Assembly: GCA_035276475.1 (NCBI GenBank)
Contig: DATELQ010000004.1
Coordinates: 12,154 to 76,153 of the forward strand
DNA: 64,000 nucleotides
Direction: 5' to 3'
Source of the DNA: Thermoanaerobaculia bacterium
GTDB lineage: Bacteria; Acidobacteriota; Thermoanaerobaculia; Gp7-AA8
Made by a program: the position numbers and the translations under genes. The notes below the pieces were generated by a model, which saw nothing but the letters and a program-made list of their open reading frames with translations, was not told where the DNA came from and ran no database searches. Positions 4,008 through 44,409 of this stretch are shown piece by piece (the first letter of the stretch is position 1; every line of letters starts with the position of its first letter).

Positions 4008-5786
4008 CTACCGCCTCATCCCCCACATCGACTCCATCAACCACGTCATCAGCCGCTCCGCCGGCAGCGGCCGCGAGATCCAGTACCCCTGCGCCAGGTC
4101 GCAGTTCATCTCCACCAGGCGGTTCCACTGCGCCTCCGTCTCCACCCCTTCCGCGCAGACCTGCTTGCCGAGGTTGCGGGCCAGGTCGATCACCGTGCGC
4201 ACGATCGAGGCGTCGGCCTCCGACGTCGTCATCCCGCTGACGAACGACTTGTCGATCTTGATCTCGTCGATCGGCAGCTGGCGGATGTGCGTCAGCGACG
4301 AATAGCCCGTCCCGAAGTCGTCGATCGACAGGCGCACCCCCATCGACTGCAGCATCGACAGAATCGCCAGCGCGTGCGCCGGGTCGGCCATGATGCTGCT
4401 CTCCGTGATCTCGATCTTGAGAAACCGCGGATCGACGTTCCAGCGGTCGAGCGCCGTCTGCACCTTCGCCGGCAGCGCCGGGTCCTGCAGGCTCTTCGCC
4501 GAGATGTTGACCGCGAGGTGCACCGGCGCGCCGGCGTCCTGCCACTGCCGGCACTGCTTGAGCGCGCGGTCGAGAATCCAGTCCGTCATCGCCCGGATCA
4601 CGCCGGTGCGCTCGGCGAGCGGGATGAACTGCGCCGGCACGAGCAGCCCTCGCTTCGGATGGTTCCACCGCACCAGCACCTCGGCGCGCGTGGCCAGGCC
4701 GCTGCGGATGTGCAGCTTCGGCTGGTAGTAGAGCTCGAACTGATCCGCCTCGACGGCCGTGCGCATTTCCACGGCCAGTGCGAGCTGGTCGGGCGAGCGC
4801 ACGGCCGTGTCGACGCTGTGGAAGCTGTACCCGCTGCTCCCCTGCTTGGCGCGATACATGGCCACGTCGGCGCAGCGCATCAGCGAGCGCGCGTCGTTGC
4901 CGTGGCGAGGGTGGAGGGCGATGCCGATCGACGCGCCGACCTCGAGCACCTGCCCTTCGACGACGAAGGCCTGCTCGAGCGCATTGAGGATCCGCCGCGC
5001 CGTCTGCGCGACGGCGGTGGCGTCGGGCGCGTGCGGCAGGACGATGGCGAACTCGTCGCCGCCGAGCCGCGCCACCGTGTCTTCGGCCGAAAGCTGATTG
5101 CGGATGCGGAAGGCCACCTGCTTGAGCAGCACGTCGCCGAAGTGATGGCCGAACGTGTCGTTCACTTCCTTGAAGCGGTCGAGGTCCATGAGCAGCAGCG
5201 CCACCATCACCGACTCGCCGCGCGCCTCCTCGAGCGCGCGCTCGAGCCGCTCGTAAAGCAGCGTGCGGTTCGGCAGGTCGGTGAGGCCATCGTGCATCGC
5301 CTGATGCCGCAGCAGGAGGATCTGGTTCTTGTTCTCCGTGACGTCCCGCAGGAACGCGACCCAATGCGTGAGCTGCCCCGCGTCCGACACCGGCACGAGC
5401 TGCAGGGCCAAATCGAACTCCGTCCCGTCCTTCCGCCGCGCCACCGCCTCCGCGTCGAATGCTTTCCCTTCGAAGACGTTCTGGAGCATCGCCACGTACA
5501 GCGCGTGCTGCGCGTCGACGATGCCGAACGCTTCCGGCGTCTGCCCGATGATCTCCGCGCGCGTGCGGCCGTACATGGCGCAGAAGCCATCGTTGACGAA
5601 GGCGATGCGCGGCCCCGCCTCCTCGACCGCCGGCGTGAGGATGGCGATCCCCTGCCCGGCGACGTGGACGGCCGTGCCGAGGAGGCGGAGCTGCTCGGCG
5701 GCGATGCGCTGCTCGCGCGCCGCCGGCTCGTCCGGGGCCTTGGTCGTCCACGCCGTGCGCAGTGAAGTAGAGGGATCGTTGGACAT
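4008..5786 (-). CDS. PAS-GGDEF-EAL c-di-GMP turnover protein
   Basis: PAS segment, GGDEF motif 'RLGGDEFAIV', EAL-domain motifs 'ELYYQPK','DDFGTGYSSL','KIDKSFV'. Confidence 0.9.
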   Translation of the reverse strand: MSNDPSTSLRTAWTTKAPDEPAAREQRIAAEQLRLLGTAVHVAGQGIAILTPAVEEAGPRIAFVNDGFCAMYGRTRAEIIGQTPEAFGIVDAQHALYVAMLQNVFEGKAFDAEAVARRKDGTEFDLALQLVPVSDAGQLTHWVAFLRDVTENKNQILLLRHQAMHDGLTDLPNRTLLYERLERALEEARGESVMVALLLMDLDRFKEVNDTFGHHFGDVLLKQVAFRIRNQLSAEDTVARLGGDEFAIVLPHAPDATAVAQTARRILNALEQAFVVEGQVLEVGASIGIALHPRHGNDARSLMRCADVAMYRAKQGSSGYSFHSVDTAVRSPDQLALAVEMRTAVEADQFELYYQPKLHIRSGLATRAEVLVRWNHPKRGLLVPAQFIPLAERTGVIRAMTDWILDRALKQCRQWQDAGAPVHLAVNISAKSLQDPALPAKVQTALDRWNVDPRFLKIEITESSIMADPAHALAILSMLQSMGVRLSIDDFGTGYSSLTHIRQLPIDEIKIDKSFVSGMTTSEADASIVRTVIDLARNLGKQVCAEGVETEAQWNRLVEMNCDLAQGYWISRPLPAERLMTWLMESMWGMRR

Positions 5787-24496: not shown

Positions 24497-26155
24497 ATGC
24501 GAATCGTCGAATGCGTTCCGAACATCTCCGAGGGCCGGCGGCCGGAGATCTACCACGAAGTTGCCAACGCGGCGAGGTCGGCGCCGGGGGTCACCTTGTT
24601 GAACGTCGATCCGGGGGCGGACACGAACCGCACCGTCATCACGTTCGTTGGGGAGCCGGATGCCGTCTTGGAAGGCGCGTTCCGGCTCGTGAAGAAGGGC
24701 GTCGAGCTGATCGACATGTCCTCGCATCGCGGCGCGCATCCGCGTATCGGTGCGGTTGACGTCGTGCCGTTCATCCCCGTTGCGAATGTGAGCATGGATG
24801 ATTGCGTCGAGCTCGCGCGGAAGCTCGGGGAGCGCGTCGGGAAAGAGCTCAACGTCCCGGTCTTCCTCTACGAATACGCGTGCAGCGCGCCGCACCGGCG
24901 CAACCTCGCAGACATCCGTGAAGGCGAGTACGAAGGCTGCGCGAAGAAGCTCCTCGATCCGCGCTGGCGGCCGGACTTCGGCCCCGCGGAGTTCGTGCCG
25001 CGCACCGGCGCGATCGTCATCGGCGCGCGCAAGTTCCTCGTCGCCTACAACGTCAACCTCAACACCCTCGACAAGCGCCTGGCCACGCGCGTCGCCTTCG
25101 ACGTCCGCGAGCGCGGGCGGATGAAGCGCGACGACGACGGCAACCCCGTCCTCGACGCCAAGGGCGAACCGGTGTGGGAACCGGGCATTCTGAAGTCCGT
25201 CAAGGCCGTCGGCTGGGTCATCCCGGAGTTCGGCTGCGCGCAGGTCTCGATCAATCTGACCGACCTCGACGTCACGCCGCTCCACGTCGCCTTCGACGCC
25301 TGCGACGAGCGTGCGCGCGAGCGCGGACTGCGCGTCACCGGCTCCGAGATCGTCGGCCTCGTGCCGCGCTCCGTGCTGCTCGACGCCGGGCGGCACTACC
25401 TCGCGAAGATGGGCCGCCCGACCGGCGTCCCCGAGGCGGCGCTGATGCACAGCGCGATCCGCAGCCTCGGGCTCAACGAGGTCAAGCCGTTCGATGCCAA
25501 CGAGCGCGTCATCGAATACCGGCTCGCGACCAAGCCGCGCCTCGCCTCGATGAGCGTCCGCGACTTCGTCGACGAGCTCTCCAGCGACGCGCCGGCGCCG
25601 GGCGGCGGCTCCGTCTCCGCGCTCGCCGCGTCGATGGGCGCCGCGCTCGCGGCGATGGTCGCGGTGCTGTCGCACACGAAAAAAGGCTTCGAGTCGAAGC
25701 ACGCAGAGCTCGACCGCATCGCCGTGCGCGCGCAGGAGCTGAAGGACAAGTTCCTCGCTGCCGTCGACGCCGACACCGCGGCGTTCGATCAACTCCTCGA
25801 GTCATTCCGCATCCCGAAGGACGATCCGAACCGCGACGCCGCCATCGAAGCGGCGACGATCGGCGCAGCCGAGGTGCCGCTGTCGGTGCTGGAAGGGTGC
25901 GCGGAGGTCATCGAGCTCTGTCGCGACGTCGCCCGCATCGGGCTGCAGGCGTCGCTGTCGGACGCCGGCGTCGGCGCGCAGGTCGCGCGCGCCGCGGCCG
26001 CGGGGGCGTATCAGAACGTCTGCATCAACCTTGCGGGGGTGAAGGAGCGCGGGGCGCTGCTGCAGCGGGCGGACCAAGCTTGGGAGCAGTCACGCGCGCT
26101 GCACGAATTGGCCGAGCGCGAGATTTTGGATTCTCTGCGTTTATCCCTCGCGTAG
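24497..26155 (+). CDS. ftcD: glutamate formimidoyltransferase / formiminotetrahydrofolate cyclodeaminase (bifunctional FTCD-like)
   Basis: N-terminal 'IVECVPNISEGR' formiminotransferase start; C-terminal cyclodeaminase domain. Confidence 0.85.
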   Translation: MRIVECVPNISEGRRPEIYHEVANAARSAPGVTLLNVDPGADTNRTVITFVGEPDAVLEGAFRLVKKGVELIDMSSHRGAHPRIGAVDVVPFIPVANVSMDDCVELARKLGERVGKELNVPVFLYEYACSAPHRRNLADIREGEYEGCAKKLLDPRWRPDFGPAEFVPRTGAIVIGARKFLVAYNVNLNTLDKRLATRVAFDVRERGRMKRDDDGNPVLDAKGEPVWEPGILKSVKAVGWVIPEFGCAQVSINLTDLDVTPLHVAFDACDERARERGLRVTGSEIVGLVPRSVLLDAGRHYLAKMGRPTGVPEAALMHSAIRSLGLNEVKPFDANERVIEYRLATKPRLASMSVRDFVDELSSDAPAPGGGSVSALAASMGAALAAMVAVLSHTKKGFESKHAELDRIAVRAQELKDKFLAAVDADTAAFDQLLESFRIPKDDPNRDAAIEAATIGAAEVPLSVLEGCAEVIELCRDVARIGLQASLSDAGVGAQVARAAAAGAYQNVCINLAGVKERGALLQRADQAWEQSRALHELAEREILDSLRLSLA

Positions 26156-26168
26156 ACGAGGGATCATC
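26141..26168. repeat. left 28-bp terminal inverted repeat / hairpin (ttatccctcgcgtagacgagggatcatc) spanning ftcD stop
   Basis: Reverse complement matches the 26485..26512 copy with one mismatch; internal 7-bp stem tccctcg/cgaggga. Confidence 0.7.
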
Positions 26169-26180
26169 CATTACACCGCG

Positions 26181-26489
26181 ATGACGAAGCCATGGGCGGT
26201 CTACATCATGAGCAACGCCGCGCACACGCTGTACACCGGCATCACGAATGACCTGCCGCGGCGTGTGCAAGAGCACAAACAACGCAAGTTCGCGAATGCC
26301 TTCACCGCGCGGTACACGTTCACTCGACTCGTCTGGTATGAATTCGTCGAGTCGCAGGAAGATGCGGCGGCGCGAGAGAAGCAGATCAAGCGATGGACAC
26401 GGGCGAGACGAGTCGCACTGATTCAAAAGATGGATCCGAACTGGAGCGATCTGACTCCGTCGGTTTGTGAGCTGTTGATGCTCAGATGA
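26181..26489 (+). CDS. GIY-YIG nuclease family protein (YhbQ/Slx1-like small endonuclease)
   Basis: 'VYIMSNAAHTLYTGITNDLPRRVQEHK' GIY-YIG motif, 'REKQIKRWTRARRVALI' C-terminal conserved segment. Confidence 0.8.
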   Translation: MTKPWAVYIMSNAAHTLYTGITNDLPRRVQEHKQRKFANAFTARYTFTRLVWYEFVESQEDAAAREKQIKRWTRARRVALIQKMDPNWSDLTPSVCELLMLR

Positions 26490-26512
26490 TCCCTCGTCTT
26501 CGCGAGGGATAA
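26485..26512. repeat. right 28-bp terminal inverted repeat / hairpin (gatgatccctcgtcttcgcgagggataa)
   Basis: Inverted copy of 26141..26168; also serves as terminator hairpin before convergent hemL stop. Confidence 0.7.
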
Positions 26513-26519
26513 ACTGCAT

Positions 26520-27809
26520 TCACTTCTCAAACTCCCAAGCAATCTTCTTGAGCACCCGGTCCACCCGCTCGATCATCTGCAAAATGTCCTTCTTCGCGTG
26601 CGCGGCGGAGAAGAACGCCGCCTCGAGCTGGGAGGGGGGGAGATACACCCCCTCGCCGAGCATCAGGTGGAAAAAGCGCGCGAACTTCTCGCGGTTCGAG
26701 CGGTTCGCCGATTCGAAATCCGTCACCGGACCGTCGTTGAAGAAAATCGTCCACATCGAGCCGACGCGGTTCATCGTCAGGGCCACGCCGTGCTTCTCCG
26801 CGGCCGCCCGCACCCCCGCCTCGAACTCGCCGCTGCGCTCCTCGAGGTCGGCGTAGATCGACGAGTTCTTCAGAACGCTCAACGTCGCGCGGCCGGCGGC
26901 CACCGCAACGGGATTACCGGACAACGTTCCGGCCTGGTACATCGGCCCGAGCGGCGACACCATCTCCATCAGCGCGCGCGAGGCGCCGTAGGCGCCGATC
27001 GGCATCCCTCCGCCGATGATCTTCCCGAGCGTCGTGATGTCGGGCCGGATCCCGTAGAGCTGCTGCGCGCCGCCGTACGAGACGCGGAAGCCGGTCATCA
27101 CCTCGTCGAGGATCAGCAGCGCGCCCTTCTCGTCGCAGACCTGCCGCAGCCCCTGCAGAAACCCTTCGGCCGGCGGCACGCAGCCCATGTTCCCCGCCAC
27201 CGGCTCGACGATGATCGCCGCCACGTCGCTGTCCATCGCGTCGCGCACCGCTTGCAGGTCGTTGTACGGCACGCTCACCGTCAGATTCGTAACCTCGGCC
27301 GGCACGCCCGCGGAGTCGGGATGGTTGAACGTCGCGGCGCCGGAGCCGGCCTTCACCAGCAGCGAGTCGACGTGGCCGTGGTAGCCGCCGTCGAACTTCA
27401 TGATCTTCTTCCTCCCGGTCGCCGCGCGCGCCAGCCGCAGCGCGCTCATCGTCGCCTCGGTTCCGGAATTGACGAGGCGCAGCATCTCGATCGACGGCAC
27501 GGCTTGGATGATCATCTCCGCCAGCTCGATCTCGCCGAGCGTCGGCGCGCCGAACGAGAAGCCGCGCGTGGCCGCCTTCTTCACCGCCTCGACGACGTAG
27601 CGGTGGCAATGCCCGAGGATCATCGGGCCCCACGAGCCGACGCAGTCGATGTATTGAAGGTTGTCGGCGTCGAAGATGCGCGATCCCTGAGCCATCTCGA
27701 TGAACGGCGGGACGCCGCCGACGCCGCGGAACGCGCGGACCGGAGAGTTGACGCCGCCCGGGATGACTTCCTGGGCGCGCTGGAAGAGAGCTTCGGAGTG
27801 TTTGGCCAT
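26520..27809 (-). CDS. hemL: glutamate-1-semialdehyde 2,1-aminomutase
   Basis: Class III aminotransferase; 'DEVMTGFR' PLP-lysine region; full-length match to HemL. Confidence 0.95.
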   Translation of the reverse strand: MAKHSEALFQRAQEVIPGGVNSPVRAFRGVGGVPPFIEMAQGSRIFDADNLQYIDCVGSWGPMILGHCHRYVVEAVKKAATRGFSFGAPTLGEIELAEMIIQAVPSIEMLRLVNSGTEATMSALRLARAATGRKKIMKFDGGYHGHVDSLLVKAGSGAATFNHPDSAGVPAEVTNLTVSVPYNDLQAVRDAMDSDVAAIIVEPVAGNMGCVPPAEGFLQGLRQVCDEKGALLILDEVMTGFRVSYGGAQQLYGIRPDITTLGKIIGGGMPIGAYGASRALMEMVSPLGPMYQAGTLSGNPVAVAAGRATLSVLKNSSIYADLEERSGEFEAGVRAAAEKHGVALTMNRVGSMWTIFFNDGPVTDFESANRSNREKFARFFHLMLGEGVYLPPSQLEAAFFSAAHAKKDILQMIERVDRVLKKIAWEFEK

Positions 27810-41591: not shown

Positions 41592-41690
41592 GGTTCTTCG
41601 TTCTTGGTTCTTAGGTTCTTAGGTTCTTAGGTTTGTCCCGCCAATAACCTAAGAACCTAACAACCTAAGAACCTAACAACCCAAGAACCC
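41592..41690. repeat. long imperfect palindrome built from tandem 8-mers (ggttctta)n ... (taagaacc)n, low GC
   Basis: Read directly: ggttcttaggttcttaggttcttagg // cctaagaacctaacaacctaagaacc; innermost 12 bp pair perfectly; immediately upstream of the ABC ATPase GTG start. Confidence 0.7.
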
Positions 41691-42420: not shown

Positions 42421-44126
42421 TCGTCGCCCGCGCCTTCGTCGAGCTCGCGGTACGCTCCTTCCGCAACCGCATCGTGTCGCGCGTGAAGCGGATGAAAGAC
42501 CCGCGCTATGCGGTGGGCGCGCTCTTCGGCCTCCTCTACTTCGGCTGGATCTTCTTCCGCAACCGCGCCGGCTCGGCGCGCTTCTTCGGCGCCGCCGGGC
42601 CGGCCAGCGAGCTGCGCCTCGACGCCGTCTCCGCCGTCGTCCTCTTCATCATGCTCTTCGCCTGGGCGCTGCCGGGTGACTCCGGCGGCCTCGAGTTCAG
42701 CGAGGCGGAGATCGCGTTCCTCTTCCCCGCGCCGCTGCGGCGCCGCGACCTGCTCCTCTACAAGATCATCCGCCAGCAGCCGCAGGTGCTGATGAGCGTT
42801 CTCGTCTTCACGTTCTTCGGCGCCACGCGCTCGAAGTTCATCGGCCTCTGGATCGCCTTCAGCGTGATGTCGATCTACATGATGCTCGTCGCGCTCGGGC
42901 GCGCGCGGCTGCGGCTGATGGGGATCAACTTCCTGGTGCGGCTCATCGCTGTCCTGGCCATCGCCTTCGGCATCGCCGCCGTCGCCTTCTTCGCCGTCAA
43001 AGGGACGCGGCTCGACCTCGTCCACGTCACGCGCGACGTGCGCATGGCGCGGATCGACACCATCTTCCACATCCCTGCGATTGCGGCGATTCTCTTCCTC
43101 CCGAAGCTCTACGCCGGCGCGGTCTTCCCGCCGTCGCTCCTGACGCTGGCGACGTCGTCGCTCGCTCTCCTCCTCATCGGCGCGCTCTTTTTCGTCATCG
43201 CCGACCGCCTCAACGTCTCGTTCGAGGAAGGATCGCTGGTGCGCGCGCAGCGGCGCAACGAGCGGCTGCAGCAGATGCGCGAGCGCCGCGGCGGCCGCTA
43301 CGTGATGTTCAAGCGCGCCCGCGCGCCGTTCCGCCTCGCGCCGACCGGAAGGCCGGAGACCGCCATCGTCTGGAAGAACACGGTGGCCACGGTGCGGATG
43401 TCGCTGGCGTGGATCATCATCATCGTCATCGTCTTCGCGGTGCTGGTCGTCAACGCCGCCTTCATGTCGCCCGTCGCGCGCAGCGCCGTCGGCGTCACGT
43501 TCCTGATGCTCACTTGCCTGATGCCGTTCATCGGCCCGAACATCTTCACGAACGATCTCCGCCTCGACCTGCCGCGGCTCGAGGTGCTGAAGAGCTATCC
43601 GCTGTCGGGGGAGGGAATCGTGGCGGCGGAGGTGGCGGCGCCGCTGGTCATCATCGCGGCGCTGGAGCTGACGACGATCGGCTGCGCCTGGGCGATCCTG
43701 GCCACGTCCGCGAGCAAGATGACGGAGATCGTCGGCGCGGAGTTCGCCGTGGTGGCGCTGCTGCTGGCGGTGCCGGTCGTGGCGCTGCAGCTCCTCATCC
43801 GCAACGCCGTCCCGATCATCTTTCCGGCTTGGGCGGTCCGGACGAAGGAAGATCCGCGCGGCTTCGTCATCACCGGGCAGCGGCTGCTGCTGGTGCTCGG
43901 CAACCTGGTCGTGCTCGGCCTGGCGCTCGTCCCGGCCGCGCTCGTCTTCGCCCCCTCGGCGTACATCGCCATCAAGTTTTTCCACGGCAACGCCATCTTC
44001 ATGGCCGTCATGACGGCGCCCGCCATCGTGGTGATCTGCGGGGAGGTCTGGCTCGGCGTTCGCTTCCTCGGGTCGCGGTTCGAGGCGCTCGACGTGTCGC
44101 AGGAATTCGACACGATTGCCGTGTAA
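42417..44126 (+). CDS. putative ABC exporter permease (large multi-TM subunit)
   Basis: GTGA overlap with ATPase gene; ~12 predicted TM helices; 'Putative ABC exporter'-like architecture. Confidence 0.8.
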   Translation: MIVARAFVELAVRSFRNRIVSRVKRMKDPRYAVGALFGLLYFGWIFFRNRAGSARFFGAAGPASELRLDAVSAVVLFIMLFAWALPGDSGGLEFSEAEIAFLFPAPLRRRDLLLYKIIRQQPQVLMSVLVFTFFGATRSKFIGLWIAFSVMSIYMMLVALGRARLRLMGINFLVRLIAVLAIAFGIAAVAFFAVKGTRLDLVHVTRDVRMARIDTIFHIPAIAAILFLPKLYAGAVFPPSLLTLATSSLALLLIGALFFVIADRLNVSFEEGSLVRAQRRNERLQQMRERRGGRYVMFKRARAPFRLAPTGRPETAIVWKNTVATVRMSLAWIIIIVIVFAVLVVNAAFMSPVARSAVGVTFLMLTCLMPFIGPNIFTNDLRLDLPRLEVLKSYPLSGEGIVAAEVAAPLVIIAALELTTIGCAWAILATSASKMTEIVGAEFAVVALLLAVPVVALQLLIRNAVPIIFPAWAVRTKEDPRGFVITGQRLLLVLGNLVVLGLALVPAALVFAPSAYIAIKFFHGNAIFMAVMTAPAIVVICGEVWLGVRFLGSRFEALDVSQEFDTIAV

Positions 44127-44140
44127 CGGCGCACGCCGGC

Positions 44141-44341
44141 AAGCTCACGGCAGACGCTGACAAGCTCACTTAACCCGCTGACAATCTCACTTAACTAGCT
44201 GAGAATCTCTCTTAACTAGCTGAGAATCTCTCTTAACTAGCTGAGAATCTCTCTTAACTAGCCGAGAATCTCTCTTAACTTGCTGAGAATCTCTCTTAGT
44301 TTGCTGAGATTGCCAGCTAGCTAAGTGAGATTGTCAGCGGA
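44141..44341. repeat. MITE-like insertion: 5 tandem copies of a 21-bp unit (tagctgagaatctctcttaac) flanked by ~20-bp inverted repeats and a duplicated permease-gene terminus
   Basis: Units at 44197,44218,44239 identical; 44260 and 44281 variants; IR ccgctgacaatctcacttaac (44172-44196) vs gctaagtgagattgtcagcgg (44319-44341); caggaattcgacac...gtataa at 44349 repeats the last 27 nt of the permease gene (22/27 identical). Confidence 0.7.
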
Positions 44342-44409
44342 TTTGCTTCCTCCGCAGGCCGTGCCGGCCAGGAATTCGACACCATCGCTGTATAATTATT
44401 AGCAGCTAA

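Follow-up and report, generated by a model that had tools for sequence, protein, structure and literature searches.

A probable Ssn module with a variant hairpin motif at the ftcD-hemL junction of a Thermoanaerobaculia bacterium

Between the convergent ftcD and hemL genes of a Thermoanaerobaculia bacterium (assembly GCA_035276475.1, contig DATELQ010000004.1) lies a small GIY-YIG nuclease gene enclosed by two hairpins that are inverted copies of one another, and the question raised by this locus is whether the hairpins belong to the nuclease, and in what capacity, or to the boundary between two housekeeping genes. We have addressed it in a 64 kb stretch of that contig (positions 12,154 to 76,153), called the window below, in whose own numbering all window coordinates are given. 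The initial annotation proposed a minimal mobile or inserted cassette carrying a YhbQ-type gene, a homing-like element lodged in an otherwise single bidirectional terminator, and remarked that the mobility of such genes is not well documented. The comparisons reported here point to an Ssn module, in which a small single-domain GIY-YIG nuclease gene is flanked by inverted copies of a hairpin motif that its enzyme would recognize, and we place the probability of this reading at about 0.8. The remark on documentation is out of date, since both the hairpin-ssn-hairpin architecture and the activity of the enzyme were published in 2025 (Chenal et al., Nat Commun 2025, PMC11893778); the window holds a further instance, with a variant motif.

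The two arms are distinguished by the extent of their symmetry. The 28-mer TTATCCCTCGCGTAGACGAGGGATCATC is found on the forward strand at 26141-26168 and again on the reverse strand at 26485-26512 with one mismatch, exactly as initially annotated and with the non-palindromic flanks included; a repeat finder extends the inverted repeat to 30 nt (26139-26168 and 26485-26514, 97% complementary), and an alignment in which one gap is allowed lengthens it to 33/34 nt. No further copy with three or fewer mismatches is present in the 64 kb window, and none arose in 100 shuffles. Each arm contains the palindrome ATCCCTCG-N6-CGAGGGAT, whose stem is 8 bp and not the 7 bp given at first, and the folding energies of the arms lie between -13.4 and -18.8 kcal/mol. 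Because the reverse complementarity between the arms also covers the loop and the non-palindromic flanks, they constitute a true inverted duplication of one oriented unit and not two similar palindromes. In the left arm (26139-26168) this unit comprises a tag, (A)GTTTAT, a stem formed by 26143-26150 and 26157-26164, the loop CGTAGA (26151-26156) and the tail C-ATC; the strand that carries the tag, and that would be the recognizable one, is the forward strand on the left and the reverse strand on the right (26485-26514). In both arms a C stands directly 3' of the palindrome (...CGAGGGAT-C).

The arms are also closely fitted to the surrounding genes. The lone mismatch, T/A, falls in the loop and on the left side creates the ftcD stop codon TAG (26153-26155), so that the left copy does hold this stop, as had been noticed; the last four ftcD codons (L S L A) are likewise built from the left arm, which ends 12 nt before the ssn start codon. 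On the other side the inner end of the right arm overlaps the last ssn codon and its stop TGA (26487-26489), and 5 nt separate the outer end from the hemL stop. The arms show no evident target-site duplication and have no direct repeat next to them.

The gene itself (26181-26489, forward strand) encodes a protein of 102 aa, the GIY-YIG domain of which (PF01541, E 7e-17) spans residues 5-75 with no second domain. No NCBIfam model fits the protein, and PADLOC returned no defence-system match. The protein is 44% identical to the 94-aa Neisseria gonorrhoeae orthologue of SsnA (75 bits, E 2e-24; tblastn E 7e-15), and thus, by way of this orthologue, falls within the published definition of Ssn homology, E < 1e-10 to Neisseria meningitidis SsnA (PMC11893778). 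Escherichia coli YhbQ is more distant (30% identity, 46 bits), for which reason the label YhbQ-type is wrong and the protein is, as judged by these alignments, Ssn-like and not YhbQ-like. The three SsnA residues that have been mutated, Y6, Y17 and E64 (PMC11893778), are the same in the N. gonorrhoeae orthologue and align with Y8, Y18 and E66 of the window protein, the presumptive catalytic equivalents; together with R28 and H32 these are invariant across 45 homologues. The solved structure nearest by sequence is 1zg2 (E 3.6e-5).

The gene is under purifying selection, with ratios of non-synonymous to synonymous divergence (dN/dS) of 0.16-0.31. It differs in composition from its surroundings, having a GC content of 57% and a third-position GC content (GC3) of 73% as against 67-69% and 90-92% in ftcD, hemL, ftsE and ftsX; the lowered values recur in eight relatives and may reflect either low expression or an element-like origin. 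Synonymous divergence (dS) of ssn in two comparisons is about 1.0 versus about 0.4 for the neighbours, an excess that could hint at horizontal replacement of the cassette but is confounded by the much weaker GC3 bias of the gene.

The Ssn family consists of single-domain GIY-YIG proteins of CDD family cd10448 (PMC11893778). Its best-studied member, N. meningitidis SsnA (94 aa), binds an oriented hairpin, NTS (CGTCATTCCCGCGMAVGCGGGAATCYRG), only as single-stranded DNA and on one strand only, and cuts a few nucleotides 5' of the tagged motif; binding depends critically on the C after the palindrome, and cutting on the three bases that precede it (PMC11893778). Four enzymes, from Neisseria and Wolbachia, cut their own motifs, and motifs of this kind (SRM) lie near 71% of Ssn homologues, on both sides in 42% (PMC11893778). 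The window locus resembles this system closely: its protein is of the same size class (about 95-100 aa), is a single-domain GIY-YIG protein and has kept the catalytic Tyr/Tyr/Glu, and its two-sided oriented hairpin consists of a tag, a palindrome whose first bases are AT, and a C that follows it. By analogy with the Neisseria and Wolbachia members, the enzyme would bind the tagged strand when the region becomes single-stranded, whether in replication, in repair or in incoming DNA, which would mean binding of the left arm on its top strand and of the right arm on its bottom strand; the characterized enzymes would further predict a nick just 5' of the tag, and hence outside the cassette on each side.

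That the hairpins go with the gene is indicated by their recurrence around related genes. A metagenome scan with an alignment of 13 closer relatives yielded 80 more loci (46-76% identity), and 77 related genes from metagenomes and genomes had enough flanking sequence to be scored. In 68 of these, flank-versus-flank inverted repeats exceeded z = 5 over shuffles, and in 54 the score was at least 40, compared with a shuffled mean of about 17. Where the tag pattern was found, in 71 arms, it stood at the gene-distal end. In the closer clade (at least 58% identity) the arm reads AGTTTAT (or AGTTCAC or ATTTAT), then the hairpin, then ATCAGCGGAGCA, with the right arm running into the final codons of the gene. 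The unit of more distant relatives is TGTCAT-CCCGAGCG-AAG-CGAGGG-ATC, and each flank is often an inverted doublet of such units, 100 nt in length. The type of tag thus follows the protein clade, with GTTTAT, GTTCAC or ATTTAT at 58% identity and above and TGTCAT or CGTCAT at 56% and below, with two exceptions, and this co-variation of enzyme clade and motif type is itself shared with the published family.

In most of the acidobacterial units, tandem G.A / A.G pairing is combined with a GCG-NAG-C centre, which forms a mini-hairpin. The canonical core, GAGCGNAGCGA, has no match in the window, the arms of which are a Watson-Crick variant of it: in the window subtype the G.A pairs are replaced by T-A and C-G, one base is added, and the stem is fully Watson-Crick. 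Covariation of the stem is visible in an alignment of 36 units, in which five of nine stem pairs change on both sides, giving 24 cells with two-sided changes versus 7.3 in shuffles (none of 500 shuffles was as high) and far lower values with slid-partner controls. The C after the palindrome is conserved in at least 90% of units (alignment A4). The arms of the window are accordingly best described, from repeat search, folding, alignment and covariation, as a putative lineage-specific variant of the motif recognized by Ssn enzymes.

The association extends to other phyla. Among homologues in a plasmid collection, from Azospirillum lipoferum 4B, Novosphingobium aromaticivorans, Sinorhizobium meliloti, Sphingobium and N. 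gonorrhoeae, the four inspected (those of A. lipoferum, N. aromaticivorans, S. meliloti and N. gonorrhoeae) are flanked by CGTC-tagged hairpins. In the S. meliloti record, labelled pSymB (CP090106.1, L179), the gene end and a CGTC hairpin are repeated upstream of the ssn homologue at 1230-2050, which points to tandem duplication of the cassette; two places in the record match. Exceptions to the association occur, however: an Anaerolineae homologue (P0071, 57% identical, at loci L086-L095) has no flanking inverted repeat. That gene sits beside bAvd-like and FGE-sulfatase-domain genes, in a layout reminiscent of the targets of diversity-generating retroelements. In two further annotated homologues (P0081 and P0119) the protein carries a C-terminal extension ending ...DPSLRSG, which is the translated downstream hairpin GATCCTTCGCTTCGCTCAGG; these genes have therefore probably been called too far, past an overlooked stop or a frameshift and on into the motif.

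Hairpins of this type also occur away from any ssn gene, 17 of them in 617 kb of related genomes as against none in shuffles. They include gene-less inverted doublets of the window subtype (GCAGTTTATCCCGCGCG[T/A]AGACGCGGGATC) of about 105 nt, which occupy the same site between ftsE and ftsX in two species (L050, 2416-2518; L041, 506-603); in the window ftsE and ftsX overlap and hold no insert. At another locus (L053, 6630-6960) composite units of about 64 nt, which combine a TGTCAT-tagged hairpin with a second small hairpin, are repeated in tandem five or six times and resemble BIME-like clusters of repetitive extragenic palindromes (REPs); no GIY-YIG gene is near the array.

Several observations weigh against this reading of the locus as an Ssn module. 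The published search pattern for the motif, HGTCWYN(0-2)YYVSBRHN(0-5)WNVSBRGN(0-2)RNCYNB, finds no match in the window or in any of 69 acidobacterial flanks but does recognize the Neisseria and Azospirillum controls; it fails because the tag has GTT instead of GTC, and most relatives fail at the G.A positions as well. Cleavage by Neisseria SsnA is governed by the three bases 5' of the palindrome, GTC in that case and TTT in the window arms, so that cutting of the window arms is an extrapolation; by analogy they may be cut through a co-evolved specificity or may only be bound. The window contains two copies of the motif in 64 kb compared with hundreds per Neisseria genome, and hence does not indicate a genome-wide effect on incoming DNA like that in Neisseria. 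Moreover, Ssn activity of the acidobacterial members is a prediction from sequence. We nevertheless file the module under Ssn with a variant motif, given that the published study describes variant motifs (NTSvar) outside the first one and expects many enzyme-motif pairs (PMC11893778).

How long the module has occupied this junction can be judged from its relatives. Four metagenomic contigs (L001-L004) carry proteins 71-79% identical to that of the window at the ftcD-hemL junction, and all four have the arms. Both arms of L001 are identical to those of the window in spite of a synonymous divergence of about 0.3 in the neighbouring genes, and the left arm of the window is also found at the orthologous locus L003, where two compensatory changes in the right arm (CCCTCG/CGAGGG to CCCGCG/CGCGGG) leave its hairpin intact. 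In L002 both arms are altered together, to ATCCCGAGCG[T/A]AGCGAGGGAT, and the paired arms of orthologous loci thus evolve in concert. Copies that have diverged further (52-62% identical) lie at or beside the junction in L020, L062, L066 and L102.

The empty-site comparison called for in the initial annotation, in the form of an FtcD scan with one genome per species (80 Thermoanaerobaculia loci), revealed presence and absence of the gene among relatives. Most of these loci have no GIY-YIG gene near ftcD. In L005, with ftcD 91% and hemL 93% identical to those of the window and thus as close as the gene-bearing L002, the gene is absent, and ftcD and hemL are directly adjacent without it in at least 17 other species. 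The empty junctions are not all clean: half a hairpin, TAG loop included, is left in L005 and L009, and one whole hairpin in L074. Decayed copies of the gene are seen in L041 and L072. At the ftcD-hemL junction of L039 there is a solo symmetric hairpin, TTTAT-CCCGAGCGTAGCGAGGG-ATAAA (5656-5676), and a GIY-YIG cassette with its own arms (1994-2296) is found 3.7 kb away, upstream of ftsE and co-directional with it; in L085 a 64%-identical cassette (2501-2806) also lies upstream of ftsE, in opposite orientation, which could have come about by inversion between the arms or by independent insertion.

Across genomes the identity of the gene tracks that of ftcD (r = 0.87, 45 pairs), which indicates that the gene has long been resident and has been passed on mainly vertically, being repeatedly lost and occasionally relocated. 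This co-divergence with the neighbours, together with the purifying selection on the gene, indicates that the module settled long ago at the ftcD-hemL junction and has mostly been inherited vertically, relatives having lost or moved it, and that it is not a recent insertion. The proposal of a minimal mobile or inserted cassette is therefore upheld in part: the unit is discrete, its layout resembles that of an insertion sequence, and the hairpins go with the gene and not with its neighbours, as arms of the same kind occur around related GIY-YIG genes in many unrelated contexts, but a recent insertion is contradicted by the 71-79% identical copies at the same junction, by the correlation with ftcD and by the dN/dS values.

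Whether the cassette is at present an active mobile element in its own right is a separate matter. Under such an explanation the nuclease would cut its own arms, or solo hairpins elsewhere, and the unit would be copied or moved, either by transposon-like excision or by a repair-templated 'homing' into other hairpins with the arms serving as homology. Much of the comparative evidence can be enlisted for it, from the insertion-sequence-like layout with tags facing outward, the presence and absence of the gene among close relatives and the decayed copies in L041 and L072 to the displaced cassette of L039, with its solo hairpin at the junction, and the reversed one beside ftsE in L085; so can the doublets between ftsE and ftsX in L050 and L041, which resemble miniature non-autonomous transposons (MITEs), the 17 hairpins away from ssn, absent from shuffles, and the depressed GC (57% versus 67%) and GC3 (73% versus 90%) of the gene. 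Against this, the module diverges with ftcD and holds the same junction down to 71% identity, near-identical second copies have not been found (one cassette and no solo hairpin in the 64 kb), and there is no evident target-site duplication. GIY-YIG enzymes hydrolyse DNA and are not known to have strand-transfer chemistry. Ordinary deletion, acting on the short direct repeats to which the palindromes give rise, could account for the losses, and because solo symmetric hairpins can be produced in the same way they are no proof of enzymatic excision. We therefore regard current autonomous mobility as possible but doubtful.

The two other explanations considered assign the hairpins to RNA, and both fit the data poorly. 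That they might be ordinary intrinsic terminators, or stem-loops stabilizing the mRNAs of ftcD, the GIY-YIG gene and hemL, with the nuclease being an unrelated housekeeping gene, is suggested by their position exactly at the 3' ends of the three genes, by the other palindromes that occur at the same junction in other species and by their moderately stable folds. The arms have no U-tracts, however, and a terminator scan does not flag them; neither a sigma-70 promoter nor an intrinsic terminator was detected at the arms. The reverse-complemented loops and non-palindromic flanks are not expected of independent terminators, the same tagged hairpins surround related GIY-YIG genes in unrelated contexts and in other phyla, and an efficient terminator 12 nt ahead of the ssn start would shut off the one source of transcription that is evident for the gene. 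In view of the missing U-tracts, the inverted loops and flanks and the recurrence of the arms across contexts, plain terminators are rejected, and we think this explanation very unlikely; nothing speaks for a duplicated terminator either, the arms matching the architecture of a recognition motif for a single-stranded DNA nuclease family, and the idea of ubiquitous REP-like terminators is dismissed for the window, which has two copies only. A function at the RNA level, in which the arms of an ftcD-ssn co-transcript would pair into a duplex of about 30 bp enclosing the ssn reading frame and serve, for instance, in RNase III processing or in the control of translation, accords with the joint change of the L002 arms, with the retention of arm-arm complementarity even where the local hairpin is weaker by Watson-Crick rules, and with the expected location of both arms on one transcript. 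Yet the double change in the right arm of L003 saves its own hairpin at the cost of pairing with the left arm, and many relatives have arms 50-150 nt from the gene or hairpin doublets. The tandem G.A pairs and the GCG-NAG-C loop, moreover, exist on the tagged strand only, the other copy on a single RNA presenting pyrimidine mismatches; such strand-asymmetric units agree with DNA being recognized on opposite strands. RNA is not a ligand of Neisseria SsnA (PMC11893778), and no Rfam family matches the arms, the sole match being a chance-level SAH riboswitch inside hemL (E 0.53). This we consider extremely improbable.

Three known types of element were considered as a home for the cassette and set aside. 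GIY-YIG homing endonucleases such as I-TevI, Seg and Mob typically exceed 200 aa and join an N-terminal GIY-YIG domain to a C-terminal DNA-binding region, and the homing-like designation was abandoned since the 102-aa window protein has a single domain and no DNA-binding extension. Membership of a REP-RAYT (REP-associated tyrosine transposase) system requires an HUH/Y1 (IS200-like) transposase, whereas the enzyme here is a GIY-YIG protein and shares the inverted-hairpin layout only. A classical insertion sequence or MITE is matched in the possession of inverted repeats, but these are without a target-site duplication or a second copy in the window.

The neighbouring genes have the identities first given to them. 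Upstream is ftcD (24497-26155, forward strand), encoding glutamate formimidoyltransferase-cyclodeaminase, and downstream, on the reverse strand and convergent, is hemL (26520-27809), encoding glutamate-1-semialdehyde 2,1-aminomutase. No other dispersed repeat family was found in the window, which does contain two sets of tandem repeats. At 44156-44309 (context 44100-44382) the 21-nt unit GCTGAGAATCTCTCTTAACTA is repeated 7.3 times with 92% matches, forming an AT-rich array within a 67% GC genome that is bracketed by an inverted 19-mer (44175-44193 and 44322-44340) and by the direct 14-mer CAGGAATTCGACAC (44100 and 44369). At 41592-41633 and 41646-41689 two adjoining inverted arrays of 8-nt units (GGTTCTTA and AACCTAAG, 5.5 copies each) make up a long imperfect palindrome, and short tandem arrays of a similar style (CGGTTAAC-like) occur at the ftcD-hemL junctions of L006 and L018.

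As one more pairing of an Ssn nuclease with its hairpin, the window module adds little to the basic principle. Its interest lies rather in a large acidobacterial branch that the published search motif misses, with a different tag and often a core of tandem G.A pairs and GCG-NAG-C, and this branch offers new enzyme-site pairs for the toolbox of single-stranded DNA cutting proposed in PMC11893778. The series of filled, empty, decayed, relocated and gene-less sites in the Thermoanaerobaculia is good material for the study of whether such modules move, and Ssn is now connected to the CGTC-tagged REP superfamily.

Compared with the Ssn modules already described, that of the window differs in its tag (AGTTTAT instead of CGTCAT), in having one hairpin per side instead of clusters, and in its host, a soil lineage of the Thermoanaerobaculia (Acidobacteriota) that lies outside the discussion of the published study and is represented here by a metagenome-assembled genome. 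The authors of that study liken NTS-ssnA-NTS to an insertion sequence and suggest domestication, mobility being raised as a hypothesis and not demonstrated (PMC11893778).

The CGTC-tagged REP superfamily, which includes the Neisseria dRS3 and Rickettsia RPE repeats, comprises short palindromes located outside genes, which have a 4-nt tag, an 8-9 bp stem starting with A-T and T-A pairs and a short tail and frequently form inverted dimers, and no dedicated transposase or other enzyme was found for it in a 2013 survey (Di Nocera et al., 2013, PMC3733652). Distant acidobacterial relatives of the window gene (56% identity or less) are flanked by TGTCAT/CGTCAT units of exactly this form, and the inspected homologues in species listed in that survey are flanked by CGTC REPs. 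The window arms follow the rule for the stem; their tag is GTTT and not CGTC/TGTC, their loop is 6 nt and not 4-5 nt, and their tail is CAT and not CCA. Ssn appears, then, to be the missing dedicated enzyme of the CGTC REPs. The NTS/dRS3 motif is the CGTC-1 family of the 2013 survey, which is not cited in PMC11893778.

The RAYT/REP-REPIN systems, or REPtrons (Nunvar, 2010; Bertels and Rainey, 2011), provide a parallel in organization, with a single-copy nuclease gene bracketed by inverted hairpins that are recognized as single-stranded DNA, mostly vertical inheritance, gene-less inverted doublets scattered in related genomes, and co-evolution of enzyme and repeat. The window enzyme is a GIY-YIG hydrolase and not an HUH tyrosine transposase, and as a hydrolase of this kind forms no covalent intermediate the same peel-and-paste chemistry is impossible. 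We entertain only tentatively the further idea that the hairpin-ssn-hairpin unit is, or recently was, an autonomous element, a hydrolase-based counterpart of RAYT/REPIN that seeds and maintains the CGTC-type REP superfamily, the gene-less doublets then being its non-autonomous derivatives and the solo symmetric hairpins its excision footprints; the patterns of gain, loss, relocation and decay in the Thermoanaerobaculia would be compatible with it without being proof. Finally, the YhbQ/UPF0213 proteins (E. coli YhbQ and Bacillus halodurans BH0048, PDB 1zg2) are of similar size and have the same GIY-YIG core, but YhbQ is without the C-terminal signature REKQIKxWxRxxKxxLIxxxNPxWxDL that the window protein has in common with SsnA.

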